A stretch of DNA of 64,000 nt from Candidatus Nanopelagicales bacterium (GTDB taxonomy: Bacteria; Actinomycetota; Actinomycetes; S36-B12; GCA-2699445), in NCBI GenBank assembly GCA_030700225.1, contig JAUYJT010000061.1, positions 39,121 to 103,120 on the forward strand, written 5' to 3'. Below are positions 2,320 to 41,743 of this stretch, piece by piece. Numbering within the stretch: the stretch's first letter is position 1; each line of letters starts with the position of its first letter. The notes under the pieces are model-generated. The model did no database searches. It was not told where the DNA came from and saw only the letters and a program-made list of their open reading frames with translations. The position numbers were made by a program, and so were the translations under genes.

Positions 2320-2655
2320 GCATGGCTAATCGGCAGTGTGCGGTTGGGTTCTTGAGCGCAATGCACCCATCGAGTTCCGGTACTGAGGCCTGATTCACGT
2401 CAGGGGGAGAGAGCGGATGGGAAATCGTGGGTTAGGTGACCCTAACCACGAACGGCGCCACATGACTCGGTGCGAGCGACCAGGGGGATTCGCTCACACA
2501 TCGTAGTTCTGTGTGATTCATGTCTCTAGCTGGTCATCGAATGGTCGCAGATGTGTCGCAGGAATTGGCCTACGTTGCTCAAGTTGCCGTGCCGCAGTCC
2601 GGTCCGGCACTCGGTGGTCGCAGATGGCCGCCGGGACGTCGACCCAAGGGAAAAC

Positions 2656-4676: not shown

Positions 4677-4743
4677 GCCGGATTGTGGCACAGTTTGGCC
4701 AGCGGGTTCCGGCCAGTGGCGGGACCGTGGGGAGGAGATCGCG

Positions 4744-4944
4744 ATGGCCGGGCGCTGGTGGTACTGCCTGAAGCATGACCGGGTGGAGCCGGACGCCGCC
4801 TGCCCTAACTCGGACCGACTCGGTCCCTTCGACACGGAAGGAGACGCCGCCGGCGCTCTCGAAGTGGCGAGGAAGCGTAACGAGGCGTGGGAACGCAGCG
4901 ACAAGGAGTGGGAGCAGGGCCCCGCGACGGGGCAGTCTGAATGA
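4744..4944 (+). CDS. small conserved-looking hypothetical protein (66 aa)
   Basis: [58 protein letters not shown]. Its stop overlaps the next gene's start (ATGA at 4941-4944), suggesting translational coupling. The rest of the 164-aa ORF is antisense to map. Confidence 0.55.
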
Positions 4945-6089: not shown

Positions 6090-6102
6090 CAAGATCCCCG
6101 GC

Positions 6103-6798: not shown

Positions 6799-6809
6799 CC
6801 CGCGCCGAC

Positions 6810-7679: not shown

Positions 7680-7841
7680 CAATCCTCCAGCGCCGTCGAC
7701 GCATCGTCGCCGCGACGGTTCTATTGTGCCATCGCTCGCGGATTCTGACTGGCGCCAGTCGGGTGGCAGGGGCCTTGCCGAGCGCGCAGTAGCCTGTGGT
7801 GGCTGCCGCGGGCGGCCACGCTCTAGAGAATCGAGCCCCGA

Positions 7842-11283: not shown

Positions 11284-11355
11284 GGTTTCAGGTTAGGGCG
11301 TGCCATTAGTGGGTTGAGCAGCGACTTCCGGCCGTAGTGCGGGCAAGATGGGTCC

Positions 11356-27962: not shown

Positions 27963-29069
27963 ATGACCGAAGATCGGCGTGACAGTCGGCGGCAGGAACT
28001 GAAGGAAACGCCGATCACCGCATGGAACCGGGCGGCCGGAGCCAAGATGGCCGATTTCGCCGGATGGGCGATGCCGATTGAGTACCCGGCCGGCACGATC
28101 TCCGAGCATCGCGCGGTGCGCTCAGGCTGCGGACTGTTCGACGTCTCGCACATGGGAACCGTGCGGATCTCGGGGGGGCCGGCCGTTGCCCGGCTCAACG
28201 AGACCCTCACGAACGACTTGGCTGTTCTGGATGACGGACAAGTGCAGTACACGTTGCTGTGCGACGAGAACGGCGGCGTTGTCGACGACATGCTCGCGAC
28301 GCGCATGCGTGCCGATGAAGTGTTGCTTGTGCCAAATGCCTCCAACACCGCCGCTGTACTGGCTGTGCTGCGCGAGGCTCTTGGCGACGAGGCCGTGGTG
28401 GACGAGGGTGACGTTGCCGCGATTCTGGCGGTCCAAGGTCCCGCATCCCCGGGCGTTCTTGAGAGTCTTGGACTGCCCTCGCGGCACAGGTACTTGACGG
28501 TGGAGACGGCCAAGTTCGAGGGCGTCCCGGTGATCGTCTCCAGGACTGGCTACACCGGCGAAGTCGGATTCGAGATCTTCGTTCCGGTGGCAGCGGCAGC
28601 GAGGCTTTGGGAAAGCCTGATCCAGGTTCCCGCAGTGACCCCGGCTGGGCTTGGTGCTCGCGACACCTTGCGCACCGAGATGGGGTACCCGCTGCATGGA
28701 CACGAGCTGTCGGCATCCATCGGGCCGGTTGAGGCTGGCCTGGCGTGGGCCGTCGCGTGGGACAAGCCGCATTTCATCGGGGACGCTGAGCTTCGGCGGC
28801 AGCGGGCCGAGGGGCCGAAGCGGCGGCTGCGTGGCGTTCGCGTGACGGGGCGGGGCGTGCCCAGGCCGGGCATGGTCGTGCGGGAGGGCGGACGGGATAT
28901 CGGATTGCTGACCAGCGGCACGTTCTCGCCCACGCTCGGTACTGGTATTGGTCTGGCTCTGGTGGAGCCGGATGTTCCGCTGGACAGCGAAGTCGATGTC
29001 GACATCCGCGGCAAGTCCGTAGCTGGGCTGCTCGTGCGGCCGCCTTTCGTCGACTCGTCTCCGAAGTAG
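27963..29069 (+). CDS. gcvT: glycine cleavage system aminomethyltransferase T
   Basis: 368 aa. GWAMPIEY, GLFDVSHMG, SRTGYTGEVGFEI, GLGARDTLR. Confidence 0.93.
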   Translation: MTEDRRDSRRQELKETPITAWNRAAGAKMADFAGWAMPIEYPAGTISEHRAVRSGCGLFDVSHMGTVRISGGPAVARLNETLTNDLAVLDDGQVQYTLLCDENGGVVDDMLATRMRADEVLLVPNASNTAAVLAVLREALGDEAVVDEGDVAAILAVQGPASPGVLESLGLPSRHRYLTVETAKFEGVPVIVSRTGYTGEVGFEIFVPVAAAARLWESLIQVPAVTPAGLGARDTLRTEMGYPLHGHELSASIGPVEAGLAWAVAWDKPHFIGDAELRRQRAEGPKRRLRGVRVTGRGVPRPGMVVREGGRDIGLLTSGTFSPTLGTGIGLALVEPDVPLDSEVDVDIRGKSVAGLLVRPPFVDSSPK

Positions 29070-29080
29070 AGCGGGGTCTT
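28998..29080. repeat. direct repeat copy A (functional 3' end of gcvT plus 11 nt)
   Basis: 83 bp, 78/83 identical by manual alignment to 38992-39074. Covers the last 23 codons and stop of gcvT. Confidence 0.9.
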
Positions 29081-29141
29081 GGGGCGGCTGCTCCCCGATC
29101 CGATGCACCGCCGCGCAGCGGTTGTCTGCTGCCAACTCCGG

Positions 29142-29599
29142 GAGTAGCTTGAAGCTGCTAAGTGGACGTCAAGTGGAAGGGATGGGCCGATCATGTCTCA
29201 GGAACAGATCGCAGTGCTTGTCACCAGGGTGAAGGAAGATGAGGTCTTCGCCGCGGCGCTTGCCGTCGCGACCGACGCGCAGGATGCGCAGCGGATCGCC
29301 TCGGAAGCTGGAATCGAAGTCAGCGCCGAGGAGCTTCTGACGTTGAAAGCTCAGGCGAGCGAGGACGTCTCGGACGCCGAACTTGAGGCTGCCTCCGGCG
29401 GACGTCGTTTCTCCACCCTCGACGTCTGCCCGCCAACGCAGCTGTGCACCTTCGGCTGGATTTGCGGATAGCGGATCCGCGCCACCGCCACTGTCTAGTG
29501 ACACGACGGCGTTTCCGGGGTGGCCGCCAGTGACGGTTGATGCGGCTATCGGTACTCACGGCTGGCCTTGGCACGAGCGTTTGGAGCGCGCTGGGCGAT
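29142..29599. repeat. tandem segmental duplication, copy 1 (lanA upstream region + leader; lanM 5' stub)
   Basis: 29142-29405 matches 29849-30112 (offset 707): the upstream 51 nt are identical and I counted about 17 substitutions in the 213-nt leader part. 29530-29599 matches 30187-30256 (69/70). The core-encoding stretch between them cannot be aligned. Confidence 0.9.
29193..29471 (+). CDS. class II lanthipeptide precursor with Nif11-type leader (LanA1), 92 aa
   Basis: The 70-aa leader MSQEQIAVLVTRVKEDEVFAAALAVATDAQDAQRIASEAGIEVSAEELLTLKAQASEDVSDAELEAASGG ends in a double-Gly. Core RRFSTLDVCPPTQLCTFGWICG (4 Ser/Thr, 3 Cys). GGAAGGGA lies ahead of the ATG. Confidence 0.85.
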   Translation: MSQEQIAVLVTRVKEDEVFAAALAVATDAQDAQRIASEAGIEVSAEELLTLKAQASEDVSDAELEAASGGRRFSTLDVCPPTQLCTFGWICG

Positions 29600-29688
29600 T
29601 GGCACATGTGTCGATCGGTCCGGTGTCCCTGGTTTTGTTGGGTGTGTCGACGCTGTGCTTCGTGGCCGACACCGCTGACGAGGTCTAG
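29530..29688 (+). pseudogene. lanM 5' remnant (first 23 codons conserved, then unrelated, stop after 52 codons)
   Basis: VTVDAAIGTHGWPWHERLERAGR is identical to the LanM N-terminus at 30187. Homology ends abruptly at 29599. Confidence 0.8.
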
Positions 29689-29848
29689 GGCGGGGATGTG
29701 ACCTTGATCCACACAGATGACGGGCCGCTGTATTCCCCCGCACGCTAGGGGTATCCGTCCCTCGCACGCGGGGGGACCCCCCGGGGAAGAGGGATCCATG
29801 GGCTCATCAGAGACCCTCGCGTGGCGGTTGCGTCCTTGGAGTTTTCGT

Positions 29849-30256
29849 GAGTAGCTTGAAGCTGCTAAGTGGACGTCAAGTGGAAGGGATGGGCCGATCA
29901 TGTCTCAGGAACAGATCGCAGTGCTTGTCACCAGGCTGAAGGAAGATGAGGCCTTCGCCGCGGCGCTCGCCGTCGCGACCGACGTGGCCGACGCGCAGCG
30001 AATCGCCTCGGAAGCTGGAATCGAAGTCAGCGCTGACGAGTTTCTGACGTTGATCCCTCAGGCGAGCGAGGACGTCTCAGACGCCGAACTGGAGGCTGCC
30101 TCCGGCGGACGTACTGGACCCGACACCTGCCTTCCCGGGTCGATTCTGTGCACCATCCCCGTGGTTTGCTCATATCAATATCATCCGTGACGGTTGATGC
30201 GGCCATCGGTACTCACGGCTGGCCTTGGCACGAGCGTTTGGAGCGCGCTGGGCGAT
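29849..30256. repeat. tandem segmental duplication, copy 2
   Basis: See copy 1. Contains lanA2 and the authentic lanM start. Confidence 0.9.
29900..30190 (+). CDS. class II lanthipeptide precursor with Nif11-type leader (LanA2), 96 aa
   Basis: The leader is 62/70 identical to LanA1 and ends in AASGG. Core RTGPDTCLPGSILCTIPVVCSYQYHP (5 Ser/Thr, 3 Cys). Its stop overlaps the lanM GTG (GTGA). Confidence 0.85.
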   Translation: MSQEQIAVLVTRLKEDEAFAAALAVATDVADAQRIASEAGIEVSADEFLTLIPQASEDVSDAELEAASGGRTGPDTCLPGSILCTIPVVCSYQYHP

Positions 30257-33200
30257 CCGCTGTATCGACGCAGGCGGACCCTCGCGACGATGCCGAACAA
30301 CCTGAGGTGGTCGCGCAATGGCGGGCTTCGGTCGATCCAGACAACGCCGGATTGTTCGCTAAACGACTGGCTTGGGCAGGGTTGAGCAGCCGCGATGTGG
30401 CGCCGCTGCTGGTCTTGGATGCCGCTCCTCGGGCGGACGCGACCGACTGGTGGGCCGATCTGGAAGCCATGCGCGACGCTTGCCGCCGATCGCAGCAATC
30501 AGCCGGCGGTTCGAACCGCGTCGATCCGGTGGATCCGGGCATCCCGTTCGCGGCGCTCCTGGATCCACTAGTGCGGTGGAACTGGACCAAAGCTCGCCAG
30601 CGTAGTCCTGAACTGCGCGGCCTGGCCATCGGCGCGCAGGAATCGGCCCGAAGGGCGTTGCTGCAAGGGCTGTCCTCGCTGTGCTCACAGGCGCTCGCCG
30701 CTGACTTCGAGGACACCCGACCGATGGGCGCCACACTCTTGCTCAAGCTGGGTTCGCTCCCCGTGGGCCAGGAGCATCCCACAGCCGTCTATGACGAATG
30801 GTGTCGTCGCCACCTCGCTGACGGCCTCACCCGCATGCTCGGTCGCTTTCCGGTGCTGGGTCGCCTGGTCTCGGTTTCTTGCGCTCAGTGGAGCTCGAAC
30901 TTGGTCGCCATGATGCAACGGGTGGACGGCGATCGAGAACTGCTGCAAGCGCATTTCGGCATCCCCGGGCAGGAGCCGATATCCCAAGTGAAGTGGGGGC
31001 TCAGCGATCCCCATCGACGTGGTCGAAGCGTCGCCATCGTTCACTTCGGAGTCGGTGCGCAGCGGCGAAGCATTGTGTACAAGCCCAAGGACATGCGCAT
31101 TGAGGAACGGTTCCAGCAGCTCGTCAGACAAGTCGGGAACTGGCTTGACGACCCCGACTGGAAGTCACTTGCGGTTGTGGCCCGTGGAACGGAGTACGGG
31201 TACGCGGCGCTCGCGGAGCACCGGCACTGCGCCAACGACGACGAGTTGGCGATGTTCTATCGAAACACCGGTCGGCTACTTGCCCTGCTTCACCTGCTCG
31301 GGGCAACGGACGCCCACTTCGAGAACCTGATCGCCGACGGGACCTCACTGCACTTGATCGACGCGGAGACCTTGTTCCAGGGCGGGATGGTTGATCCGAT
31401 CGAACTCAACCCGGCATCGGCAGACCCGCCAGAGAGCGTGTTGGCCGCCTCAGTCCTTCGGGTAGGGCTGCTCCCGTGCTGGCTACTCGGCGGCAGCCCA
31501 ATGCGGGCCTACGACGTCAGCGCGCTGGGCATCAAATCCGTGGAAGGTCCGATGTCAATCCTGGGCTGGGCGCACGTCAACACCGACGACATGGTCTGGG
31601 CGAGAGTCGATTACCTTCCCGACCAACCTGGATCGCTGCCTGTTCCGGCGGGCGTTTCGAACCCCTTGGCCTCACATGTGGACGATGTGACTGCGGGCTT
31701 CGAGCAGGTGTACCGACTGGCCATGGTGCCCGAGTATCGCGAGAGTCTGGTTGCCTCAGTCGCGGCGTTCACCGGGGTTACGCGCCGGATCGTGCTGCGA
31801 GCTACCCGCGTGTACGCCAAGGTGCAGGAGAGCGCCTTGAGCGCCGAGGCGCTCGCCGATGCCAACTGTCGGGCATTCGCGCTGGAGAAACTGTCGCGCA
31901 ACAGTCTGTTGACCGATTCGAAGCGCGCTCAGTGGCAGGTGTTCCTGTCGGAGCTCTTCGACATGGAGAACCTAGACATCCCGTACTTCGAGTATCCGTT
32001 GGGTTCCGATGAGGTGATCTCGTCGACTGGGGCGATTCCCGGCTTACTCGCAGGCAACGAGATCAGCGAAGCGATCGAACGCATCAACAATCTGTCGGAC
32101 ACCGATAGGGCATGGCAGGTGCGACTGATCCGCGGTTCGATTCGGGCTCGCTACCACGCCATCAATCGCGTCGAAGAGCAGCCGCCGATAGTGGATGTCA
32201 CCGCGCCGGGCGATTCGAGTGCCATGACTGTCGGTGCGGTGGCTGACGGACTTCTGACTGGTCTGGCGGAGTCAATGATCGACGACGGCGCTTCGGACCG
32301 CTCGTGGCTCACATTGTCTCTGATCCCGGGCGCGGACAAAGTCAGGCTAGGCCTGATCGGTGATGGGCTGTATGACGGCCGTGCCGGGGTGGCCGCGTTT
32401 CAATTCCTGATGGCAGATCTCGGTCGCGATGGGGCAGTTCGGGCCGATGCAGAGTCCACTGTGGCGCCGGTGCTCCGGCGGCTGGACGACCCCGATCAGT
32501 ACACGCGATTCCGTTGCCTTCGCGATTTCGGCCTCGGCTGGGCAGGTCTGGGTGGGTTGCTCCGACTGTTCGACCTGCGTATGCGCAGCAGTGCTCCGGG
32601 CGACATGTTCGGTGCCCCCGAGGCAGTGAGTCGCTTGGTCTGCCAGGTGTCCGCGGACCTGATCGGGCGGGACCTCCACCGCGACCTGCTGGCGGGCGTC
32701 GCCGGGCTGATAGGTCCGATCGCCCGGATTCATCGCCGGACCCCCACTGAGCGGACGGCCTCCATCCTGCGGGCAGCAGCGGAGCACCTGATGTCGGAGC
32801 AGAGTGGTGATGGGGGCTGGCCGGTCGCTGACGCCAGAGCACCGCTCACTGGACTCGCGCACGGCGCTAGCGGCATGGGTATGGCACTGCTGGAAGCGGG
32901 GACGGTATTGGACGACGATCGGATTGTCGAAGCTGGCACCCGGGCGTTCACCTATGAACGCAGCGTCTTCGATGTCGGCGTCGGTAACTGGCCCGATTTC
33001 CGCGAGCACCCGGGTCGGGAACCAGGCGACTCGTCTTTCATGGTGGCGTGGTGTCACGGTGCTCCGGGCATCGGGCTGGCTCGCATGCGCGCGCTGCAAC
33101 TGCTCCCCGAACATCCGCAGGCCAGTGCGTGGGACGAGGAGTTGCGCCTGGCCATGGATACGACGGTGCGCAGTCCGATCGGAATGATGGACCACCTTTG

Positions 33201-33459
33201 CTGCGGATCCATGGGACGCGCGGCCGTGCTACGGGTCGCTGGGCGTTGGGCTCGAGAGCCAGAATGGGTGGGCGCCGCAGATGAGTTGACCTTCGACGTG
33301 ATCGCACGGGCACGCGTCAGGGGCCGCTTCACGCTGCAGCTCGACGATCCACGCACGGCCGCGACAACCGCACCGGGCCTGATGACAGGGGTCGCAGGAG
33401 TGGGGGCGCACTTGGCGAGCATGATGAGTGACGGTGATCTGTCCACTCTGCTGCTTTGA
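30187..33459 (+). CDS. lanM: class II lanthipeptide synthetase LanM (ProcM-like, CCG zinc-site variant)
   Basis: About 1090 aa. Dehydratase-domain motifs IVYKPKDMRIE, GATDAHFENLIADG, LHLIDAETLF. LanC-like cyclase motifs GLAHGASGMG, WCHGAPGIGLAR, DHLCCGSMGR. Start set at GTG 30187, where homology with the duplicated stub begins. An alternative GTG is at 30148. Confidence 0.9.
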   Translation: MTVDAAIGTHGWPWHERLERAGRSAVSTQADPRDDAEQPEVVAQWRASVDPDNAGLFAKRLAWAGLSSRDVAPLLVLDAAPRADATDWWADLEAMRDACRRSQQSAGGSNRVDPVDPGIPFAALLDPLVRWNWTKARQRSPELRGLAIGAQESARRALLQGLSSLCSQALAADFEDTRPMGATLLLKLGSLPVGQEHPTAVYDEWCRRHLADGLTRMLGRFPVLGRLVSVSCAQWSSNLVAMMQRVDGDRELLQAHFGIPGQEPISQVKWGLSDPHRRGRSVAIVHFGVGAQRRSIVYKPKDMRIEERFQQLVRQVGNWLDDPDWKSLAVVARGTEYGYAALAEHRHCANDDELAMFYRNTGRLLALLHLLGATDAHFENLIADGTSLHLIDAETLFQGGMVDPIELNPASADPPESVLAASVLRVGLLPCWLLGGSPMRAYDVSALGIKSVEGPMSILGWAHVNTDDMVWARVDYLPDQPGSLPVPAGVSNPLASHVDDVTAGFEQVYRLAMVPEYRESLVASVAAFTGVTRRIVLRATRVYAKVQESALSAEALADANCRAFALEKLSRNSLLTDSKRAQWQVFLSELFDMENLDIPYFEYPLGSDEVISSTGAIPGLLAGNEISEAIERINNLSDTDRAWQVRLIRGSIRARYHAINRVEEQPPIVDVTAPGDSSAMTVGAVADGLLTGLAESMIDDGASDRSWLTLSLIPGADKVRLGLIGDGLYDGRAGVAAFQFLMADLGRDGAVRADAESTVAPVLRRLDDPDQYTRFRCLRDFGLGWAGLGGLLRLFDLRMRSSAPGDMFGAPEAVSRLVCQVSADLIGRDLHRDLLAGVAGLIGPIARIHRRTPTERTASILRAAAEHLMSEQSGDGGWPVADARAPLTGLAHGASGMGMALLEAGTVLDDDRIVEAGTRAFTYERSVFDVGVGNWPDFREHPGREPGDSSFMVAWCHGAPGIGLARMRALQLLPEHPQASAWDEELRLAMDTTVRSPIGMMDHLCCGSMGRAAVLRVAGRWAREPEWVGAADELTFDVIARARVRGRFTLQLDDPRTAATTAPGLMTGVAGVGAHLASMMSDGDLSTLLL

Positions 33460-33465
33460 CTGCTC

Positions 33466-35967
33466 CTACAGCTGTTGGCGTTCGATGAGGTCGTGGAACG
33501 GTCCGGGTCTAGCCATGAGTTCGGCGAACTTGCCTTCGGCAACGACGACTCCGTCTGTGAGCATGACCACCAGATCGGCTTGTTCGATAGTGGACAAGCG
33601 GTGTGCCACAACCACGCGGGTGATGTTCAGTCGGTCCAGGTTGGCTACGACCGCAGCCTGGCTGACGTTGTCCAGCGCAGACGTAGCCTCGTCGAGAATC
33701 AGGATCCGGGGCTTGCCCGCCAGCGCGCGCGCCAGCAGGATTCGCTGGCGCTGGCCACCTGATACCGCACCGGTGCCTTCCACTACGACGGTCGCCAGTC
33801 CCATCGGCATGGCGCGCACATCTTCAGCCACTGCCGCGTCCGCTAGGGCCTGCCAGATTTGTGCCGCCGACAAGCCCCGGCCCAGGTCGACGTTCTCTCT
33901 GATGCTGCCGGGCATGAGGGCCGAGGACTGCATCACCGATCCGATCTGGCGACGCACGGACGAGCGATCGAGAGCCGACAGGTCGCGTCCGTCGAAGGAC
34001 ACGATTCCTGACTCCGGATTCTCCAACCCCAGCACGAGGCGCAGCAGTGTGCTCTTGCCGCAACCGGACGGTCCGACGATCGCCACGTGCGCCCCTGCTG
34101 GAATGGCGAAGCTGACACCCCGCAGCACCGGCGGAGTGTCGGGCCGGTAGGAGAACACCAGGTCGCGCAGGTCGATCGAACCAGCCAGTTGCGCGACCTC
34201 CTGGCCAGTGCCGGACTCGGGCTCAGCGCGCAGCACGGACCGGGCACGCTCAAGCACGGCCCGTGCGCTCAGACCCGCGCCGACCGATGCGACCGCAGCA
34301 GCAACCGCAGATGTCGCCGCCGTCAAGGCAGTCTGGGCGGTGACCAGGCTGCCCACACTTGTCCCTGCCGCAGCCGTGACTGCGAGCAGGACAGCTAGCC
34401 CCGCCGAAGGCCACAGCGCTCCGGTCATCTGTTGGGCCACAGTGAGTCGACGCTGGCGCACTTCGGTCGCCGTTGTGCGGGTCTGGGAAGTGGCCCACAG
34501 GGCGAAGGCGCGCCCGGTCGCGCCTGACACCCGCAGGCGGCTAACCCCGGCGATCAGGCCGAGCGTGACTGACTGGCTTTCCGTGCTCGCGTCGAGGACT
34601 TCCCGGGTCAGTCGCGCCGCGCGGCGCACGAGCAGCAGCTCGACGACGGCTCGTACAACCAGGAACGCCAGCAGTGCGGTCGCCAGCGACAAACTCGTCG
34701 TTGCCACACCAAGCATGGCGCCCACCACGGCGGAGATGTCCAGCAGGGAGGTAATGACCGAGTTCGACATGCTCATCGAGGCCGTGTCAACAGCGTTGGC
34801 GTCGGTCATGCGCGAGGCAACGGTGCGCTGGTTCTGCCACGACATTGGAAGGCGTATCAACCGATCCCAAACCGCGGTCGCCGTCACGGCCACTCCGCGG
34901 CCACGAATGCGCAACATGGCGTACAACCGCACGGCCCGAAGCGCCATATCGCCAGCGGCGAAAGCCACCAGGGCAACGCCGACGACCAGGAGCGTCGACC
35001 CGGTCTGGCTAGCCACGGTCGAGGTGAGCTGTCCGGCCACAATCGGGATGACGGCGGCCAGCACTCCCACGATCGCTGTCAGCATCGCGACCAGCCACAG
35101 ACTCTTCTTGCTGCCTCGCAAACCCAGGCGCACCAGGTCGCGGATCCGAGCCGGGCGATTCGGATCCAACAGGGGCTCGAAAAGAATCGCCTCGCGCGAC
35201 CACGGCGCAGCGGTGGCCGCGTCGAGGGCGGCGTGCAGGCCTAGGGTCGGCTCCCACACGTGGTAGGCACCCCTGCGCCAGACAGCCGCACCGTAAGTCG
35301 CCCGGTGGCGGTCCTGTAGCAACAGCGGGGGCCCCTCCTGACGCCACCAACCGGGCGTCAGTCCAACCCGCCGCACGGCCGCACCGGACGCGGCGGCCAG
35401 GGATGTGATCGTGTCGCGGCCGGTGATCTCAACGTCGGCGACGGCCCGGCGAAGGAGCAAAGGATTCGGCCGCAGCCCAATCTGTCGCGCCATGAATTCC
35501 ACTACCGCGACATCGTCGGGAAGATCACCGGAGGTGAGCAAATCCGGCTTCTGGCCCGGAACCGCCGCCGCCAGGCCCAGCAGGGCATCGTCGATCAATC
35601 GCTCATCGTGGCGCGCGGACAACCGCAGCAGGTCAGCCGCCGACAGGTTTCGGTCGTTTGCCGCGCTGAGCGCCTCGCGAGCCGATCGGGCCATCGCCTG
35701 CTCGGCAGCATCGTCCGTGGCGGAGACCGGCTCGACTTGCGTGCCCGGCAACCCAACGCCAACCAGGTCAGCCCCTTCCACCTGCGCGCCAGTCAGTTGG
35801 CTAGGGGGAGTGACCTCGCACACCGGGATGCGCCGACCCGGACCGGCATCCGTGCGGGGAACAACGAACACCACAACCGTCCCCGTCACAACCCGCACTG
35901 TCGTGCCGGGGGTCAAGTGCAGGATCTCCGTGGCGTCGAGGGTGTGACGGATGTCAGCGGTGTTCAC
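33466..35967 (-). CDS. bacteriocin-export ABC transporter, permease/ATPase with N-terminal cNMP-binding-like barrel (NHLP/Nif11 system 'ABC2' type)
   Basis: 833 aa. The N-terminal ~150 aa domain has no peptidase Cys. It is followed by a 6-TM permease, then Walker A GPSGCGKST, signature LSGGQRQR and Walker B LILDEATSALD. Confidence 0.8.
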   Translation of the reverse strand: MNTADIRHTLDATEILHLTPGTTVRVVTGTVVVFVVPRTDAGPGRRIPVCEVTPPSQLTGAQVEGADLVGVGLPGTQVEPVSATDDAAEQAMARSAREALSAANDRNLSAADLLRLSARHDERLIDDALLGLAAAVPGQKPDLLTSGDLPDDVAVVEFMARQIGLRPNPLLLRRAVADVEITGRDTITSLAAASGAAVRRVGLTPGWWRQEGPPLLLQDRHRATYGAAVWRRGAYHVWEPTLGLHAALDAATAAPWSREAILFEPLLDPNRPARIRDLVRLGLRGSKKSLWLVAMLTAIVGVLAAVIPIVAGQLTSTVASQTGSTLLVVGVALVAFAAGDMALRAVRLYAMLRIRGRGVAVTATAVWDRLIRLPMSWQNQRTVASRMTDANAVDTASMSMSNSVITSLLDISAVVGAMLGVATTSLSLATALLAFLVVRAVVELLLVRRAARLTREVLDASTESQSVTLGLIAGVSRLRVSGATGRAFALWATSQTRTTATEVRQRRLTVAQQMTGALWPSAGLAVLLAVTAAAGTSVGSLVTAQTALTAATSAVAAAVASVGAGLSARAVLERARSVLRAEPESGTGQEVAQLAGSIDLRDLVFSYRPDTPPVLRGVSFAIPAGAHVAIVGPSGCGKSTLLRLVLGLENPESGIVSFDGRDLSALDRSSVRRQIGSVMQSSALMPGSIRENVDLGRGLSAAQIWQALADAAVAEDVRAMPMGLATVVVEGTGAVSGGQRQRILLARALAGKPRILILDEATSALDNVSQAAVVANLDRLNITRVVVAHRLSTIEQADLVVMLTDGVVVAEGKFAELMARPGPFHDLIERQQL

Positions 35968-38126
35968 GCCATCACCAATCGTCGGTACGGGCCGTCCACC
36001 GCGACCAGGTCGACGTGACGCCCGCGCTGCACGACTTGACCCTTGTCGAGGACGATGATCTCGTCCGCGTCGCGCACCGTGGACAGCCGATGGGCAATGA
36101 TGAGACTCGACGCGCCTCTTCGTCGGATCGCGGCGTCGATGTGCGCCTCGGTTGCCGCGTCCAACGCCGAGGTGGCTTCATCCATGATCAGCAGGGCCGG
36201 GTTGCGCACCAGAGCGCGGGCGATCTCGAGCCTTTGCCGCTGTCCACCCGACAGGTCCCCGCCGCCCTCGCGCAGTTGCGCCTCGTAGGAACCCGGGCGG
36301 CGCGCGATCTCGTCGTGTAGGGCCGCGTCCTTGACTGCCTGAACGACGGCGGCGTCATCGATGGTGGGATCCCACAGGGTGATGTTGTCGCGGAAGGTGC
36401 CAGCGAAGATCACCGGATCTTGGTCGACTATTGCCATGTCGTGATGCAGGACCTCCTCCGGCCACCACTGGCGCGGCTTGCCGTCGACCATCACCGCCCC
36501 CTCCCACGGTTGATACAGCCCGATCACCAACCGCGCCACTGTCGACTTCCCGCACCCGCTGGGTCCAACCAGCGCCACGCGAGAACCAGGGGCGATGTGT
36601 AGGTCCAAATCGGTCAACAGAGGCGGCCGATTGCGGTCGTATCCAAAGACCAAACCATCCAGCCGCAGGTCTCCCACGACAAAGGCCGGCCGGGGCTCGC
36701 CGGATGCATCGACCTGAATGTCAGGCAGTTTGGTTTGCAGAACGTCGTCGATCTGATCGAGTTCGCCGGATAGCATCTCGGCTTGCTGGAACTGCGCGAC
36801 CACCATGGCCGCGGGTGCCAGTGCCAATCCCAGCAGCGTCTGTACAGCGACGAACCCGGCCAGCGTTAGCTGCCCTTTCGTGACGCCGAGGAGTCCGACA
36901 ACCGTTACCGCCGCATCCGCAACTGTGATCAGGAAGACGGGCAGCAGATCGATGCCGACCGTGCGCTCACCCAACTGCTGCAGTGCCGCCAGAAAGCGGT
37001 TATGGGCAGCCGTCCATCGAGCGCCGAGGTGGTCTTCGGCACCGGACGCCTTGATTACCTCGAGCTGACTCAAGGAGGTAACGGCAATCGTCGCGACCTC
37101 GGTCTGTTCTCTGACCATTCTCATGGCCAGAGTGCGTCGCCTTCTGGATGCTGACGCCATCGCCAAGACGACGAATGCGACGGCGGCGACAGCAACCGCC
37201 CCCGCCGGCGGGTAGGCGAAGACCATCAGCGCCACCGCGGTCGAGCTGCTGATGACTCCAACTACCATCGTGGAGAACATGGTGGACACGGTCGCGGCCA
37301 CCCGAGCCGGTTGGAGGGCTCTTTGCGCCAAGGCGCCAGCGCCTCGCATGGCGTGGAAGTTCGCCGGGAGGAGGAACAGGCGAGCGACCAGCTTGGACTG
37401 CAGAACCACTGACAACTTCGTAGCCAAACGCATTCCGACGGCGCCCTGCAGTCCGATCAGAGCGGCCTGCATCAGGGCTGCGAAGGCTAGCGCTGCGAGC
37501 AGACTCGGCACCTGCACCACCGGGCCGCCCTGAAGCCAATCCACGAACAGCCGGGCGATCCCCGGCACCAGAATCTGGGGAATAACCAGCAGCAGCCCCA
37601 GCAGCGCGATGAGGAGAACGCCGTCGCGGGATCCTGTGAGGTAGCTGGCGAGTCTCGAAACCAGCCGTGGAGGCCGACCGCCCCTGACGAACTCGGGGCC
37701 GGGCGTCATCTCCAACACGATCCCGGTGAACGACTCGTCGAATTCCTCGTCGCTGCAGGTGCGGTGGCCGAGCGCCGGATCGTTCAGATACCAGCCATCC
37801 GGTGACCACCCTTCCACCACGAGGAAATGGTCAAAGCGCCAGAAGACTATGGCGGGAAGCGTGCGGGTCTTCAGGGTCTCGGGCTGGCTGCGGCGAGCCA
37901 TAACCTCCATCCCATACTTCTGGGCGGCGATCTTGACCGCGAGGGCGTTGCTCCCGTCTCGGGAGATACCGCACGCATCGCGCAGCTCCTCCAGCGGCAC
38001 CCACTTTCCATAGTGGGCCAAGACGATGCCGAGCGACGCCGCACCGCACTCGGTGGCCTCCATCTGCAGGCGTGCCGGCGTCTTCTCACGGTGGCGCCTT
38101 GACGCCGCAGCAGTGCTGGTACTCAC
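35964..38126 (-). CDS. bacteriocin-export ABC transporter with N-terminal C39 peptidase domain (NHLP/Nif11 system 'ABC1' type; LanT-like)
   Basis: 720 aa. C39 residues are visible (QMEATECGAASLGIV Cys; FDHFLVVEG His; LNDPA Asp). GPSGCGKST, LSGGQRQR, LIMDEATSALD. ATGA overlap with the downstream ABC gene. Confidence 0.88.
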   Translation of the reverse strand: MSTSTAAASRRHREKTPARLQMEATECGAASLGIVLAHYGKWVPLEELRDACGISRDGSNALAVKIAAQKYGMEVMARRSQPETLKTRTLPAIVFWRFDHFLVVEGWSPDGWYLNDPALGHRTCSDEEFDESFTGIVLEMTPGPEFVRGGRPPRLVSRLASYLTGSRDGVLLIALLGLLLVIPQILVPGIARLFVDWLQGGPVVQVPSLLAALAFAALMQAALIGLQGAVGMRLATKLSVVLQSKLVARLFLLPANFHAMRGAGALAQRALQPARVAATVSTMFSTMVVGVISSSTAVALMVFAYPPAGAVAVAAVAFVVLAMASASRRRRTLAMRMVREQTEVATIAVTSLSQLEVIKASGAEDHLGARWTAAHNRFLAALQQLGERTVGIDLLPVFLITVADAAVTVVGLLGVTKGQLTLAGFVAVQTLLGLALAPAAMVVAQFQQAEMLSGELDQIDDVLQTKLPDIQVDASGEPRPAFVVGDLRLDGLVFGYDRNRPPLLTDLDLHIAPGSRVALVGPSGCGKSTVARLVIGLYQPWEGAVMVDGKPRQWWPEEVLHHDMAIVDQDPVIFAGTFRDNITLWDPTIDDAAVVQAVKDAALHDEIARRPGSYEAQLREGGGDLSGGQRQRLEIARALVRNPALLIMDEATSALDAATEAHIDAAIRRRGASSLIIAHRLSTVRDADEIIVLDKGQVVQRGRHVDLVAVDGPYRRLVMA

Positions 38127-38974
38127 TGCTTCCCCAGCAACTGCTCCAACAGGCTCCGCTCGCTGACCAGGATGACCCCCTCGAACTCGTCGCTGGACGG
38201 AGCGGGCTCGTCAAGCAGCACTTCGATGACAACCCGCGGCCCTGGCGGGGGATCAAGTGTTCCCATGCCTTCCTGAACTAGGGCGGGTGACAGCGCCGGA
38301 CTGCGATCGGGCCCGATCCGCCCGGCCAGCACAGGCCCGCCGCTAACGGACACGGTCACCGACTGACCCTCAACCACTTTTCCCGCCTCGTCCGGCAGCA
38401 CGGTGATCAGGCCGACGCGGCCGTCATCAACCTTCAGTGACACCTGCGCAAGCCATTCGCCGGTATGTATCGGAGCCCCGGGCGACGAAAGGTAGCCCAG
38501 CAGCGTTCCTTCGACTTGCGAAAACTGGGGCACGGCGCGTTTGCCCGCGATGACATCCGCAACCCGCTGGCCGACGGTGACGCGCTCACCAGGCTTGACG
38601 GCGAAACTGCCGAACTGCCCCTTCGCGCTGGAGGTGACAAGGCCGATGCCGTTGAGTCCGACGACCCGACCCGAACCCGACACGGTGACGTTGCGCGGGG
38701 TGATCGCCGTGTAGGCGATGGCGGCGCCGATCAGGATGACAGCCGAAACAACAAGCAGCCAGATGCGCAGAGACGTCACCGGCAGCAGCTGGTCGAGTCG
38801 GTTGCTGGACTCATTCGCCTCCAGCGCTGCGGTTCGGTAACTAACCGCGAGTGGAGACGACGATGGCGATGTTCGCGATTGCGGCGAAGGGGCTGTCTGA
38901 TCAGCCGGCTGATTCGTGATGAGAAACCTCCCTCTGGCTGGCTTGGCTATCCTCGCCCACAGTAACGCGATCAT
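38123..38974 (-). CDS. short HlyD-family / membrane-fusion-like secretion protein of the bacteriocin exporter
   Basis: YRTAALEANESSNRLDQLLPVTSLRIWLLVVSAVILIGAAIAY (N-terminal motif plus single TM as in NHLM-system HlyD proteins), then beta-barrel-like repeats (VKPGERVTVGQRVADV, VVEGQSVTV). Start trimmed to ATG (complement of 38972-38974). The 486-aa ORF runs antisense through the gcvT remnant and the next gene. Confidence 0.7.
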   Translation of the reverse strand: MIALLWARIAKPARGRFLITNQPADQTAPSPQSRTSPSSSPLAVSYRTAALEANESSNRLDQLLPVTSLRIWLLVVSAVILIGAAIAYTAITPRNVTVSGSGRVVGLNGIGLVTSSAKGQFGSFAVKPGERVTVGQRVADVIAGKRAVPQFSQVEGTLLGYLSSPGAPIHTGEWLAQVSLKVDDGRVGLITVLPDEAGKVVEGQSVTVSVSGGPVLAGRIGPDRSPALSPALVQEGMGTLDPPPGPRVVIEVLLDEPAPSSDEFEGVILVSERSLLEQLLGKQ

Positions 38975-38991
38975 GTCGGCAATGGCTGGGA

Positions 38992-39074
38992 GTCGACATC
39001 CGCGGCAAGGCCGTAGCCGGGCTGCTTGTGCGGCCGCCTTTCGTCGACTCGTCCCCGAAGTAGAGCGGAGTCTT
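38992..39074. repeat. direct repeat copy B = orphan gcvT 3' fragment (23 codons + stop, no upstream gene body)
   Basis: Would encode VDIRGKAVAGLLVRPPFVDSSPK*, against VDIRGKSVAGLLVRPPFVDSSPK* in gcvT. Homology starts abruptly at 38992. Confidence 0.9.
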
Positions 39075-39135
39075 CCCAGGTCGAGGATGGAAGCGGACTC
39101 GCGTACGCACGGGTTGGACGACTTCCTAGCCTCCC

Positions 39136-40578
39136 GTGTTACAGTCCGCCGTGGCTGTCGGCGCGGAGGAATCTCAGGGGCTCCAGCCCTCCGAGCCGGG
39201 CATCGAGTCGGCATGGCTGAACCGCCAGCGGGCTTGGCTTGAGAGCCGAGCGAACATCCTGGGTCTTGTCGGGTTTTGTTTCGCCGTCGGGATCGGACTG
39301 GCAAATCAGCTCGCGTTTGGATTCGCCGGAGATCTGGATCTGCTCGGTAGCGGCCTGACCCTGGCAGTGGCCGGCCTCGTCGCCGGGGCTGGTATCGCGG
39401 TCGCCCTGACTCGCCGCCTCGGCAGGTGGCATCTGGCGATCGCAGCGACGGCCTTCGGCACGACGATCGCGCCGGTGGTGTCGGCCATGGCGCACTCCGA
39501 GCGCGTCTTGCCACAGGCCATCGCTCTAAGCCTCGCCGCCTCAGGCGCAGTTCTCTGCGCGGGTGCGGCGAAGCCCGGCACAATCCGCTCGGTCGCGTTC
39601 TGGACTCTGGCCGCGATCATCTGGGTGAGCCTGGCGTTGGCTGTCGCGAACCTGCTCTTCGGGGGCGAGGCCGCGTTCCGCAACCACTACTACCCCAGAT
39701 ACAGCGAGTACCTGGGACTTCCGGTCCTGTCCGGCATCACGGGACATCAGAACACGTTGGGATTCATCGCGGCCATCGCTCTGCCGGTCCAGTGGGTTAT
39801 CGCGGACGGCAAGTCAGTGATCCGCCGCCGCCTGCGTGCCGAACCTCGAACGCTTCTGCTGGTAGCGCTCGGCCCGGTCGCGACCGCGATCGCGCTCCTG
39901 TGGTCCCAGAGCCGGACGTCGCTCGCGGCCGCCGTCCTTGGCTTGATCGTTGTCTCACTCCCGCTGCGTCGCCTGGCAGGCCGGACTTGGGCGTTCGCCT
40001 GGGCTGGGCTCCTCGCGGTGCTCGCACTCGGCCCGCTCGCGGTTGGTTTGGTCGGCATCACGACCTTCACCGGCCGCGTGGAGATGTGGACCTACGCGTT
40101 CGCGGACTTCCGCGCGAATCCACTCTTCGGCTACGGCTCAGCGTTCATGGGCAGGGACGGCTACTGGCGCGACAAGCCGACGTTCCCCGACCTATTCGGG
40201 GCCCACAACCAGCTCATGGAGATGCTGGGCCGCACCGGAATGATTGGGGCCATTTCGTTCACCGCTATGGCCGTCGTCCTCGCGGTGGCGGCATGGAAGG
40301 TGCACCAACGCGACGGGGGAGTCGCGGCGGCGATCATCGTCGTCTACGCGCTCATTGGCAGCCTGGAGACCCTGATTCCTCTAGCGCAAGCTCAGGCCGT
40401 TGGGCTGAGGGAGGTCTTCACCCCAATGATCCTGGCGCTGGGGTTGATCGCCTCGTCACTGGCGCTCGTCTCGCGTCGCGGGGATGGGAAGGACAATCAG
40501 GACGCGCCCGTCAGCCGGAACGCACCGCACGACGTCGGGCGGCCCGCGCGTAGAAGGCTCCCAGGACAGCCGTCGTGA
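39136..40578 (+). CDS. O-antigen ligase / polymerase-like (Wzy_C) integral membrane protein
   Basis: 480 aa, polytopic. LLWSQSRTSLAA and FGAHNQLMEMLGRTGMIG are typical of the O-antigen ligase family. Start uncertain. Confidence 0.65.
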   Translation: MLQSAVAVGAEESQGLQPSEPGIESAWLNRQRAWLESRANILGLVGFCFAVGIGLANQLAFGFAGDLDLLGSGLTLAVAGLVAGAGIAVALTRRLGRWHLAIAATAFGTTIAPVVSAMAHSERVLPQAIALSLAASGAVLCAGAAKPGTIRSVAFWTLAAIIWVSLALAVANLLFGGEAAFRNHYYPRYSEYLGLPVLSGITGHQNTLGFIAAIALPVQWVIADGKSVIRRRLRAEPRTLLLVALGPVATAIALLWSQSRTSLAAAVLGLIVVSLPLRRLAGRTWAFAWAGLLAVLALGPLAVGLVGITTFTGRVEMWTYAFADFRANPLFGYGSAFMGRDGYWRDKPTFPDLFGAHNQLMEMLGRTGMIGAISFTAMAVVLAVAAWKVHQRDGGVAAAIIVVYALIGSLETLIPLAQAQAVGLREVFTPMILALGLIASSLALVSRRGDGKDNQDAPVSRNAPHDVGRPARRRLPGQPS

Positions 40579-41743
40579 CCGCGTAGCCAAAGAAGGTCCC
40601 GATGGCTCCCGCGATCACGCCCAGGTTTCCGACCAGGGCCAGCAATACGGCTGCGCCAGTGATCACACCGGCCAGCGAAGCCATGGCCACTTCCGCGGTC
40701 CGCCCGTCGAGCACCGCGACTTGGTTCTCCAGCGGCACATACAACGGGATCGGCAGCAAGCTGGCGACAAGGATCGCGGTCATCCAGCCGATGTCAGGGT
40801 AGGTCGGTCTGAACAGGAGCAACGCACCAAGCACGGAGACCGCGCCGCCTGACAGGAGAACCAGCAGGTAGCGGCCCGACTCTGCCGCCAGCCTCGCCAC
40901 GGCGCCGGACACGGACTGGCGAATGATCCGGCCATAGCGGGCCTTGTTGTACTCCGAAACCAGGATGTTCGCGATGTTCGCGAGCTGATAGCTGAGCGCG
41001 TAGACGCCGAATGTCTCGGATGAGACCAGTCCGTACAGGAGGAACTTGTCGAGGTTCGCCAAGGCGCCCTGCAGCCCAGCGGTCAAAACCCACGGCCCGG
41101 ACCTCCGCGTGGTCGCGACTCCATCCCTGACTGTCTGGCGAGAGGGAACGCGCAGTCCCGCGAGACCGATGCGGCGGATCGCGAAGATGATCACGATCGC
41201 GGCCTGAGCCACGTCACCCGAGACCCACAGCCACAAGACATCCAGCGACGACCCCGAACCGACAACGATCAGGGCCGCGATGCGCAGTAGGCCGGCGGCG
41301 AGGAAGGGAATGAACACGAACTCGATCAACGCCCTCTTGTCGTGTCTGATTCGCGCCCGGCCCAGCACTGGCATCTGGCACAGCCCCAGAACTACCGCGG
41401 AACCGATCATCACAGCCCACTGCCAGAAGGGGAAACCAACCAGGATCGCGAATCCGGCGAAGCACAGCCCGGCCAGTGCCGCCACCGGCAACGCGACGAA
41501 CCAGGCGGGGGCCAAGGGCCTGGGCGGGCGCCCGTCCAGGCGCCTGCGTTCCTCGTAGATCGCGGTGAACTCCAGTCCGCCGCTCGACAGCAGAGTCAGC
41601 CAGGCACTCGCGACCGCCAGCATCGCCACCTGGGCGAACTCGCCGGGACCGATCTGGCTAGCGAAAAGAAGCAAAGCCAGAAAAGGCATGCCGCGCGTCA
41701 CGCCGCCGGCGCCGAGGCTTGCCGCGTACCACGTCATCCGCAC
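40511..41743 (-). CDS. polysaccharide flippase-like (Wzx/MOP superfamily) membrane protein
   Basis: 410 aa, about 12 predicted TM segments, no soluble domain. Lies among glycan-synthesis genes. Confidence 0.55.
   Translation of the reverse strand: MRMTWYAASLGAGGVTRGMPFLALLLFASQIGPGEFAQVAMLAVASAWLTLLSSGGLEFTAIYEERRRLDGRPPRPLAPAWFVALPVAALAGLCFAGFAILVGFPFWQWAVMIGSAVVLGLCQMPVLGRARIRHDKRALIEFVFIPFLAAGLLRIAALIVVGSGSSLDVLWLWVSGDVAQAAIVIIFAIRRIGLAGLRVPSRQTVRDGVATTRRSGPWVLTAGLQGALANLDKFLLYGLVSSETFGVYALSYQLANIANILVSEYNKARYGRIIRQSVSGAVARLAAESGRYLLVLLSGGAVSVLGALLLFRPTYPDIGWMTAILVASLLPIPLYVPLENQVAVLDGRTAEVAMASLAGVITGAAVLLALVGNLGVIAGAIGTFFGYAVTTAVLGAFYARAARRRAVRSG

Follow-up and report, generated by a model that had tools for sequence, protein, structure and literature searches.

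A prochlorosin-like lanthipeptide cluster in an actinobacterial genome with a duplicated lanA and a lanM 5' stub

The DNA analyzed here, called the window below, is a stretch of 64,000 nt from the forward strand of contig JAUYJT010000061.1 (positions 39,121-103,120; assembly GCA_030700225.1), which belongs to an actinobacterial metagenome-assembled genome (MAG) labeled Candidatus Nanopelagicales. It contains two Nif11-leader precursor genes (lanA1 and lanA2) upstream of a single class II lanM gene with a ProcM-like CCG zinc motif, neighbored by genes for a C39-peptidase ABC exporter, a second ABC protein, and an HlyD-like protein. By sequence, we read the locus as a class II lanthipeptide cluster of the prochlorosin-like type and as a further N11P/LanM example. 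Three assemblies represent the lineage: GCA_030700225.1, GCA_034376245.1, and a sister MAG, GCA_034523275.1. The arrangement in GCA_034376245.1 is identical to that of the window, with 100% identity over 12 kb, so these two are not independent, and since they make up two of the three lineage assemblies, population-level inference comes down to one strain pair. The lanM of the sister MAG is 97.6% identical to that of the window at the nucleotide level, and the two strains are about 2-3% apart.

The precursor gene lanA1 (29193-29471, + strand) encodes 92 amino acids, with a leader (29193-29402) ending in Gly-Gly and the core RRFSTLDVCPPTQLCTFGWICG, and lanA2 (29900-30190, + strand) encodes 96, with its leader at 29900-30109 and the core RTGPDTCLPGSILCTIPVVCSYQYHP. 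Both precursors score above the cut-offs of TIGR03798 (50.3 bits for LanA1 and 43.6 bits for LanA2, cut-off 32.3) and PF07862 (32.7 and 29.8 bits, cut-off 23.8). lanA1 is annotated as a gene in a public assembly, and lanA2 is likewise called. The leaders are 89% identical as proteins; in line with the counts of an initial annotation made from the letters alone, 17 substitutions in 210/213 nt produce eight amino-acid changes (V13L, V18A, A29V, Q30A, E46D, L48F, K52I, and A53P). Mutagenesis by a diversity-generating retroelement was rejected, since the 17 differences between the copies span all four bases and are not adenine-specific.

The initial annotation had similarity vanish right after the GG-R codons, leaving an unalignable core. 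Identity drops at this point, but the loss is not total: 29442-29470 and 30146-30174 are 72% identical at an offset of 704, and at the protein level the cores have a common Cys/Thr scaffold (DVCPPTQLCTFGWIC versus DTCLPGSILCTIPVVC). Across five units, two in the window and three in the sister MAG, the Gly-Gly at residue 70 is invariant, core-type identity beyond it falls to 44-62% at the nucleotide level, and every core holds three Cys and four to five Ser/Thr. The two cores of the window are predicted variants of one ring scaffold rather than an alpha/beta pair.

The lanM gene (30187-33459, + strand), called with its start at 30187 in two assemblies, encodes a class II lanthipeptide synthetase of 1090 amino acids (TIGR03897, 620.9 bits, cut-off 304) that joins an N-terminal dehydratase domain (DUF4135; PF13575, 301 bits) and a C-terminal LanC-like cyclase (PF05147, 118 bits) in one protein. 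Its zinc motif, HLCCG, lies at residues 1003-1007 (HLCCGSMG), with CCG at 1005-1007; this CCG motif characterizes promiscuous ProcM-type enzymes (PMC10027976). Three export genes are encoded on the - strand: an ABC permease/ATPase at 33466-35967, closest to the model NHLM_micro_ABC2 (TIGR03797, 552 bits, equivalog cut-off 709); an ABC exporter with an N-terminal C39 peptidase domain at 35964-38126 (TIGR03796, 801 bits, cut-off 853; PF03412, 107.8 bits); and a short HlyD-like secretion-adaptor gene encoding 218 amino acids at 38123-38779 (weak match to TIGR03794, 37 bits against a cut-off of 156, along with HlyD_3 and Biotin_lipoyl), called at equal length in the sister MAG. TIGR03796, TIGR03797, and TIGR03794 are the top families for these genes, each scoring below its equivalog cut-off, so the export proteins are relatives rather than certified equivalogs. 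The C39 ABC exporter is presumably the enzyme that cleaves the leader at GG.

The lan cluster is bracketed by an 83-nt direct repeat. The left copy (28998-29080, + strand) is the 3' end of gcvT (27963-29069; GcvT match NF001567, 395 bits), and the right copy (38992-39074, + strand; BLASTN, 94% identity, E=8e-31) is a displaced gcvT 3' end with a stop codon, which is also present in the sister MAG (second contig, 10097-10179). An empty integration site was sought via gcvT in the genome contig collection, where the nearest match was just 62% identical. GC content shows no clear foreign signature across the cluster (63-68% versus 65-68%), and there are no additional Nif11 leaders or transposases elsewhere in the 64-kb window. 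Querying the genome contig collection with LanM returned no relatives, and neither the LanA alignment nor a degenerate DNA pattern for the leader end brought up anything related among metagenome contigs; the sole match of those metagenome searches was an unrelated SpoIID-domain protein with a chance DVTDAELEAASGG.

Self-BLASTN aligned 29139-29405 with 29846-30112 (267 nt, 93% identity, E=2e-113). The exact block begins at 29142, which confirms the repeat of 29142-29405 at 29849-30112, at an offset of 707 and with 17 mismatches. The 51 nt upstream of the ATG are identical in both copies, and identity continues to 29228, making 87 nt free of mismatches. Position 29142 holds as the start of the exact block but not as the onset of homology, since weaker similarity (about 57-60%) reaches upstream to about 29100-29118 in copy 1 and 29807-29825 in copy 2. 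This diverged upstream homology of unit 1 (29100-29141, + strand, about 57% identical to 29807-29848 by alignment) leads into TTGTCT-N17-TAGCTT, a possible promoter whose TAGCTT lies at 29145-29150, with 29852-29857 as its counterpart in copy 2; a promoter/terminator consensus scan of 28900-30400 returned zero sites. The 51-nt upstream block (29142-29192, + strand), presumed to be the 5' UTR and ribosome-binding region of lanA1, precedes lanA2 in identical form (29849-29899, + strand), has these two occurrences only in the window, and contains a palindrome, AGCTTGAAGCT, and two AAGTGGA repeats spaced 11 nt apart.

A second block, 29530-29599, matches 30187-30256 at 69 of 70 positions (E=3e-29, offset 657). 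Self-BLASTN and the sister MAG both show that the tandem duplication of lanA and the first 70 nt of lanM is real. The mosaic described at the outset, with near-identical flanks, leaders at about 90%, and cores at 44-62%, is likewise uneven beyond chance: the flanks have 1 mismatch in 121 nt against 17 in 213 nt of leader (Fisher P=0.004), there is a 0.001 probability that the 17 mismatches would all miss the first 87 nt, and permuting for the longest mismatch-free run gives 0.016.

The two lanA genes end differently, as had been noted. The stop codon of lanA2 overlaps the lanM GTG at 30187 as GTGA, and lanA1 is followed by a 58-nt spacer (29472-29529, + strand) that has no counterpart in unit 2 and is 88% identical in the sister strain. 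Next comes the lanM 5' stub (29530-29599, + strand), whose 23 codons, VTVDAAIGTHGWPWHERLERAGR, are a genuine lanM 5' end with the motif G-x-x-W-x-x-R-[LI] common to many LanM homologues; protein-family profile searches on the stub gave no family match. The stub retains the GTG start and a purine-rich stretch upstream, and it carries the state inferred as ancestral for the lanM 5' end at each of the three sites that distinguish the lanM genes of the two strains. Its open reading frame (29530-29688) continues into unrelated sequence and comprises 52 codons and a TAG at 29686-29688. The stub had been called dead, and the lack of conservation in the length of this frame (52 codons in the window versus 106 in the sister strain) bears that out. 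In none of the more distant clusters compared (L004, L005, and L008-L011) is the lanM 5' end duplicated.

A junction filler, X (29600-29848, + strand), separates the stub from unit 2 and is unique within the window. It includes a weak IS3-transposase-like fragment (about 29656-29733; NCBIfam E=0.08, on the reading frame of the sister strain), GC-rich palindromes (29734-29790), and the lanA2 upstream region (29807-29848). Pfam gave no match on the stub-X reading frame, and the palindromes were rejected as a CRISPR-like or dispersed repeat because they have no second copy within the window. Similarity to lanM or other cluster proteins is absent from the 246 nt after the stub, and only noise came up when X and the 58-nt spacer were compared, under highly permissive settings, with the DNA and every protein of the cluster. 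The fold of the 58-nt spacer is not significant (z=-0.25); RNA folding of the spacer, filler, upstream block, and post-gcvT region gave z-scores near 0, and Rfam had no matches at E<=1 in 28500-30800.

In the sister MAG the order is gcvT, lanA_a, 58-nt spacer, stub, X, and lanA_b, with its own SNPs, and its three lanA units are broken up by IS3 and IS21 debris. Two contigs of this one binned MAG, JAXMHY010000026 and JAXMHY010000018, split a single IS3 transposase gene, one holding profile positions 316-369 and the other 189-311, and we infer that they are adjacent across it. On the second contig, the IS3 piece is followed by part of an IS21 element, a shortened X, lanA_c, and lanM; its positions 784-12564 are 98.3% identical to 29677-41462 of the window. 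Unit 2 of the sister runs straight into an IS3 remnant, with the stub absent there. X is 95% conserved in the sister MAG after the stub and is partly repeated ahead of the third lanA.

Cassette-like behavior of the core, proposed in the initial annotation, finds support in the sister strain. Compared at the lanA1 position, the orthologues have flanks (upstream block and stub) that are 100% identical, a leader at 90%, and a core at 60%, with the spacer at 88% and X at 95%. Between the strains, the interior of position 1 (leader, core, and spacer) has 28 mismatches in 268 nt, compared with 50 in 1495 nt of its surroundings (Fisher P=5e-6), and dS is 0.325 for the leader versus 0.048 for lanM and 0.108 for gcvT. 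Allele replacement by recombination fits this roughly threefold excess of divergence better than selection alone. The window lanA2 corresponds to the sister unit-2 leader joined to the sister unit-3 core, with 100% identity in the core. Moving along X-lanA2 of the window, the best partner is successively sister unit 3, unit 2, neither (a stretch of window unit-1 type), unit 2, and unit 3 from the core onward, a pattern of partner switching supported by a runs test (z=-3.5, P=2e-4). In the 3' half of the leader, unit-specific sites (29294, 29327, 29330, and 29347-29349) are common to both strains, so the lanA units are older than the strain split. The upstream block occurs in two variants, 10-12% apart.

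We consider it probable that this prochlorosin-like cluster acquired its lanA array by a segmental duplication that clipped lanM, and that the array has since been reshaped by unequal crossing-over and gene conversion. Going by family membership, one CCG-type LanM would serve two precursors (three in the sister strain), dehydrating Ser/Thr and cyclizing onto Cys in the cores, and the C39-peptidase ABC exporter would cut after Gly-Gly and then export the products. The tandem duplication would have copied a unit made up of the upstream region, lanA, the spacer, and the first 70 nt of lanM, leaving the stub as a non-functional by-product and a junction now holding about 250 nt of filler, probably with insertion-sequence debris. 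By sequence comparison, the array has since evolved as short tandem arrays in general do: unequal crossing-over alters the number of units (two in the window, three in the sister), and short gene-conversion tracts homogenize the parts that align (upstream block, 5' leader, and stub). Tracts and crossovers stop at the leader/core boundary, so that each unit retains a different core on the common Cys/Thr ring scaffold.

This account replaces the earlier idea of a single duplicate-then-replace event with repeated exchange between paralogous units, which is why the flanks look younger than the middle. It fits a textbook head-to-tail duplication only in part, since the left unit has no preceding copy of X: the junction of lanM nt 70 with X is present at 29599/29600, but what stands before unit 1 is gcvT plus 61 nt. 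The 58-nt spacer of copy 1, set against the GTGA overlap of copy 2, also calls for either a further loss of about 47 nt or another donor.

A stronger version, in which the conserved upstream block and 5' leader on one side and the lanM stub on the other act as homology arms and the lanA positions are swappable cassette sites, strikes us as unlikely. Selection could also have kept the stub and upstream block more generally, whether as homology arms or for a cis-regulatory or translation-initiation role, allowing core cassettes to be swapped or co-regulated, which we rate as distinctly unlikely. Both blocks are unchanged between strains at position 1, with the sequence between them diverged by 10-40%; recombination breakpoints fall in or beside both, and the start codon and purine-rich stretch of the stub are kept. 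However, zero differences in 70 nt are not unusual at 2-3% strain divergence, where about two are expected, and the upstream block is not strongly constrained, given its two variants. The variable length of the stub frame, the IS3 remnant in place of a stub after sister unit 2, and the negative RNA structure and Rfam results also speak against selection on these blocks.

The initial annotation had offered two origins, and the one in which the duplicated segment carried just the 5' end of lanM is the better supported. In the other, an ancestral lanA1-lanM1/lanA2-lanM2 arrangement lost most of lanM1 by IS-mediated deletion, and gene conversion with lanM2 has preserved the stub. The joining of the stub to filler with a weak IS3-like fragment, the active-looking IS3 and IS21 pieces within the sister's array, and the gene conversion clearly at work in the locus all suit such a history, and the stub could derive from a different lanM copy because the lanA1-58 nt-lanM' junction is unlike the lanA2/lanM overlap. 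Nevertheless, 29600-29848 has no resemblance to the lanM interior, its 3' end, or other cluster genes, and the stub does not diverge at all from the lanM 5' end inferred as ancestral, next to leader paralogues that differ by 8%. Each related cluster inspected for lanM number has a single lanM and no full second copy, and similar leaders with one core scaffold fit one promiscuous CCG-type enzyme rather than dedicated alpha/beta enzymes (PMC10027976). Loss of a second synthetase seems to us distinctly improbable.

The sister MAG makes mis-assembly, in which a short-read assembler would have stitched the lanA alleles of co-existing strains in tandem, very unlikely. The source is a MAG and the two assemblies with the exact window structure are not independent, but the independently assembled sister shares the junctions and the lanA-spacer-stub-X-lanA order while having its own SNPs (about 5% in X) and another core. 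Allele stitching would not create the stub/X junction or X, which are unique sequence, and k-mers of the lengths common in final assembly rounds exceed the identical blocks (87 and 70 nt).

The prochlorosins (ProcA/ProcM of Prochlorococcus and Synechococcus) are among the closest known systems and likewise have Nif11-type leaders ending in Gly-Gly and multiple precursors in a genome that pair a conserved leader with a hypervariable core. As with ProcM, a single LanM with a CCG zinc motif would modify multiple precursors (PMC10027976). In both systems similarity breaks at GGCGG, the leader/core border, the precursor genes are interspersed with pseudogenized pieces and fragments of transposases, and localized recombination is the suspected diversifier (Laurenceau et al., bioRxiv 10.1101/2020.03.09.984088). 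The present locus differs from the prochlorosins in its actinobacterial host, in having only two to three precursors in tandem directly upstream of lanM rather than scattered (a scale far below that of picocyanobacteria), in the dedicated C39 ABC exporter set that adjoins it, and in a duplication unit marked by a lanM 5' stub. Its mobile debris is IS3/IS21 rather than TnpA_REP; Laurenceau et al. no longer claim a causal role for TnpA_REP, and a chi-site idea has the status of a proposal (10.1101/2020.03.09.984088). In the present locus leader segments can be seen directly to pass between units, whereas indels are said to be the main way in which prochlorosin cores diverge.

Likeness to the N11P/NHLP system (Haft et al. 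2010, PMC2887384) extends to the TIGR03798 scores above cut-off, the Gly-Gly that ends family similarity before a short, variable, Cys/Ser/Thr-rich core, and the neighborhood of LanM and a peptidase-ABC/ABC/HlyD-like trio, although the trio falls short of the equivalog cut-offs for the export genes of that system (TIGR03796, 801/853; TIGR03797, 552/709; TIGR03794, 37/156). Roseocin of Streptomyces roseosporus (PMC10027976) is also actinobacterial and has two precursors with a conserved leader, different cores, and a single LanM. A roseocin-type two-peptide lantibiotic was rejected here: RosM is CHG-type and roseocin-family leaders are NHLP-type, whereas this enzyme is CCG-type and its leaders match TIGR03798 and not the NHLP model, and roseocin peptides form a synergistic alpha/beta pair with different ring patterns, in contrast to the one scaffold predicted here. 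Two-component lantibiotics of the lacticin 3147 or haloduracin type share the two lanA genes and the apparent second lanM start, but the leaders here are near-identical rather than enzyme-specific. A two-component system with two LanM enzymes was also rejected, since only 70 nt of lanM are duplicated and there is no other lanM-like sequence in the window or in 29600-29848.

This locus does not overturn current views and is a small, ordinary case of a known route of peptide diversification. It bears on the ways in which precursor genes are multiplied and diversified at prochlorosin-type loci. The comparison of two strains about 2-3% apart offers a readable snapshot of array evolution, in which a clipped lanM start marks the unit, the number of units goes from two to three, leader tracts end at Gly-Gly, and insertion sequences land in the array. 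If the homology-arm reading were true, cores would swap between units and strains by ordinary homologous recombination, the stub would be retained for its usefulness, and multi-precursor lanthipeptide loci would have a machinery-free route to expansion and diversification. The four natural core variants on one Cys/Thr scaffold, together with a CCG-type LanM from a little-studied lineage, could aid work on enzyme promiscuity.

At this locus, lanA units (precursor gene plus flanks) stand in a tandem array. Their number varies between close strains, and short tracts have been repeatedly exchanged between them, with breakpoints that keep to the leader/core border. The cores are different but have a scaffold in common, and the array has taken up insertion sequences. 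Two Nif11-leader precursor genes, lanA1 (29193-29471; TIGR03798, Nif11-like leader RiPP precursor, 50.3 bits; PF07862) and lanA2 (29900-30190; TIGR03798, 43.6 bits; PF07862; cut-off 32.3 for both), precede lanM (30187-33459; TIGR03897, 620.9 bits, cut-off 304; DUF4135 and LANC_like); the window holds no further Nif11 leaders. On the minus strand lie an ABC protein (33466-35967, nearest TIGR03797) and a C39-peptidase ABC exporter (35964-38126, nearest TIGR03796), both under the equivalog cut-off, and an HlyD-like gene (38123-38779) with weak family matches. The locus matches the N11P / LanM / export architecture known from Haft et al. (PMC2887384), and the LanM cyclase domain carries an HLCCG motif, and CCG is what sets promiscuous ProcM-type enzymes apart from the CHG type (PMC10027976). 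The public record lists the source as a Candidatus Nanopelagicales MAG.

Both direct-repeat blocks described in the initial annotation were recovered by a repeat finder, pairwise alignment and the self-BLAST it had proposed: 29139-29405 versus 29846-30112 (267 nt, 93%, E=2e-113), with 29142 as the start of the exact block, and 29530-29599 versus 30187-30256 (69/70, E=3e-29). Upstream of the first block, weaker homology (57-60%) continues to ~29100-29118 (copy 1) and ~29807-29825 (copy 2). The annotated identity of the 51 nt upstream of both ATGs holds and extends to 29228, giving 87 mismatch-free nt, and the 17 leader substitutions, which do cause 8 amino-acid changes, all fall within 29229-29384. 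The chance of all 17 mismatches missing the first 87 nt is 0.001, the longest mismatch-free run is significant by permutation (P=0.016), and the flanks differ at 1/121 nt versus 17/213 for the leader (Fisher P=0.004); the uneven identity between the copies is statistically real. Similarity had been said to vanish after the GG-R codons; the cores do differ, but they are not fully unalignable, 29442-29470 matching 30146-30174 at 72% (offset 704), and the core peptides have a common scaffold (DVCPPTQLCTFGWIC versus DTCLPGSILCTIPVVC). Rings predicted from residue spacing are likely the same in both cores (T/S-x3-C, S/T-x2-C, T-x4-C), so the peptides look like analogues, not an alpha/beta pair. As annotated, a 58-nt spacer follows lanA1; the stop codon of lanA2 and the GTG of lanM share the sequence GTGA. 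Unit 2 lacks ~47 nt of unit 1 including the lanA stop codon (30146-30190), so that lanA2 continues via SYQYHP into the lanM start, and this C-terminal tail may be left over from a deletion instead of having been selected as part of the core.

A genome with the same 12 kb at 100% identity (GCA_034376245.1) is not independent of the window. The sister MAG GCA_034523275.1 is independent (lanM 97.6% nucleotide identity, dS 0.048; gcvT 96.7%, dS 0.108). Its contig L006 reads gcvT, lanA_a, the 58-nt spacer, the stub that copies the first 70 nt of lanM (70/70 identical to the window's stub), the filler X between stub and unit 2 (95% identical to the window's), lanA_b and, on the opposite strand, an IS3 transposase, of which it has the C-terminal end. 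This transposase is split over two contigs, with profile positions 316-369 on L006 and the adjoining 189-311 at the start of L003, where it is followed by an N-terminal fragment of IS21. Starting at L003:784, the sequence matches window 29677-41462 at 98.3%; this stretch comprises truncated X, lanA_c, whose core is that of lanA2, and lanM. Given the content of L006 and the adjoining L003, three lanA units are most likely present in the sister, the second and third of them separated by insertion sequences. The presence of the stub and its junction in the sister MAG makes both older than the split of the two strains, and this independent assembly contradicts an assembly chimera. The split IS3 and the IS21 fragment lie in L006:6056-6459 and L003:1-800, between the second and third units; the IS3 has the motif TTAGCCGGTTAAG in both parts and seems to be itself interrupted by another, unassembled element.

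Between strains, unit 1 (lanA1 versus lanA_a) is 97.6% identical far upstream, 100% in the 51-nt upstream block (plus a 5-nt indel), 90.0% in the leader, 60% in the core, 88% in the spacer, 100% in the stub and 95% in X. Mismatches number 28/268 in leader plus spacer and 50/1495 around them (Fisher P=5e-6), and leader dS is 0.325, 3-6x the gcvT and lanM values. Since synonymous sites are also hit, recombinational import of a more diverged allele fits better than positive selection alone. We typed the window's X-lanA2 region at sites distinguishing sister units 2 and 3. The window is of unit 3 type at 29742-29795 and unit 2 type at 29813-29851; it matches neither at 29881-29905, where it is identical to its own unit 1, is mixed over the stretch after that, and is of unit 2 type again at 29968-30043 and unit 3 type from 30109 (core, lanM). 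The 29 informative sites form 6 runs versus 14.7 expected (P=2e-4). As read from these sites, lanA2 is a sister unit-2 leader (dS 0.039) joined to a unit-3 core (66/66 identical). Unit-specific sites in the 3' half of the leader are common to both strains (29294, 29327, 29330, 29347-29349), which indicates that the unit-1 and unit-2/3 lineages predate the strains.

Encoded in the 23 codons of the stub (29530-29599) is G-x-x-W-x-x-R-[LI], a motif that many LanM homologues also have close to the N-terminus; this marks the stub as real lanM coding sequence, not a UTR element. The stub is dead, as annotated: it joins unrelated sequence, and its reading frame runs 52 codons here (29530-29688) versus 106 in the sister (TAG versus TGG), with no family match. 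Both stubs carry the majority, inferred-ancestral base at 3/3 sites where the strains' lanM 5' ends differ, hence no measurable divergence from the ancestral lanM start. The stub and the upstream block may be selected, as homology arms or a regulatory element, but an absence of changes over 70 nt falls within the neutral range, the upstream block occurs in two variants, and sister unit 2 has no stub. A second lanM once present and then lost, as in the initial annotation's lanA1-lanM1/lanA2-lanM2 pair, is unlikely. Conversion could hold an old stub similar, but nothing points positively to such a loss: no remnant of a further lanM is seen, the related clusters examined each carry one lanM, and the two precursors have almost the same leader and a common core scaffold. 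At permissive settings, the 246 nt after the stub showed no similarity to lanM or the other cluster genes; the sole hint of their origin is a 26-residue IS3-transposase-like stretch (E=0.08).

We infer instead a founding segmental duplication of the upstream region, lanA, spacer and lanM nt 1-70, with filler at the junction. Unequal crossing-over would later have shifted the unit number between 3 and 2, and gene conversion between units would keep the alignable flanks alike, making them look younger than the middle. The limits of homology would also be the limits of the conversion tracts: the GG border, position 29599 and the lanM GTG, the last because unit 2 lacks the spacer. Judging from their families, the single CCG-type LanM would modify all precursors and the C39 exporter would cut after GG.

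The identical upstream block (29146-29177, 29853-29884) contains the palindrome AGCTTGAAGCT (11 nt) and, 11 nt apart, two copies of AAGTGGA, the second of which is AAGATGA in sister units 2 and 3. They may serve as a binding site for a regulator or as a 5' UTR element; the lan cluster itself has no apparent regulator gene. A segment made up of the final 72 nt of gcvT and the 11 nt that follow (28998-29080) recurs as a direct repeat ~10 kb away at 38992-39074 (94%), the two copies bracketing exactly the lan cluster from lanA1 through the HlyD-like gene; the right-hand copy is found in the sister MAG too. The repeats resemble an attL/attR footprint, as left when an island inserts into the 3' end of gcvT; there is no visible integrase, and GC content is not distinctive. 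A mechanical ORF for the HlyD-like gene spans 38123-39583 (minus; 486 aa), with adaptor likeness only in the C-terminal 218 aa (38123-38779), which is also the length called in the sister MAG; the ~800 nt upstream, including the displaced gcvT 3' end, are probably non-coding. A contig with a more distant Nif11/LanM cluster (L008; LanM 43% identical) carries a perfect 24-nt palindrome, GACTACCGTGCTAGCACGGTAGTC, between two divergent precursor genes (1838-1861), just upstream of lanM (4946-4971) and just downstream of it (8340-8367); the adjoining LuxR-type response regulator gene suggests that it is probably a shared operator. On an unrelated metagenome contig, a SpoIID-domain protein (L007:2083-2120, minus) has DVTDAELEAASGGR right after a signal-peptide-like N-terminus, its first 13 residues matching the leader end here at 12/13 (T for S) and the next residue, R, matching too; we regard the match as a chance one in coding sequence that is alanine/glycine-rich and of high GC.

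By analogy, the system would work like the prochlorosins, with which it shares a Nif11 leader, a GG border, a CCG LanM and several precursors for one enzyme at the sequence level, but it differs in host, scale, tandem layout beside lanM, dedicated exporters and the type of associated mobile elements. It is neither of the roseocin type (CHG enzyme, NHLP leaders) nor a two-LanM system. In the literature searched, nothing describes a truncated lanM start as the mark of a duplicated precursor unit, which is absence of evidence only. The finding will not surprise specialists. The array is real and well defined, and it shows clearly, on a small scale, how precursor arrays grow and shuffle, which bears on a question that the prochlorosins also pose.
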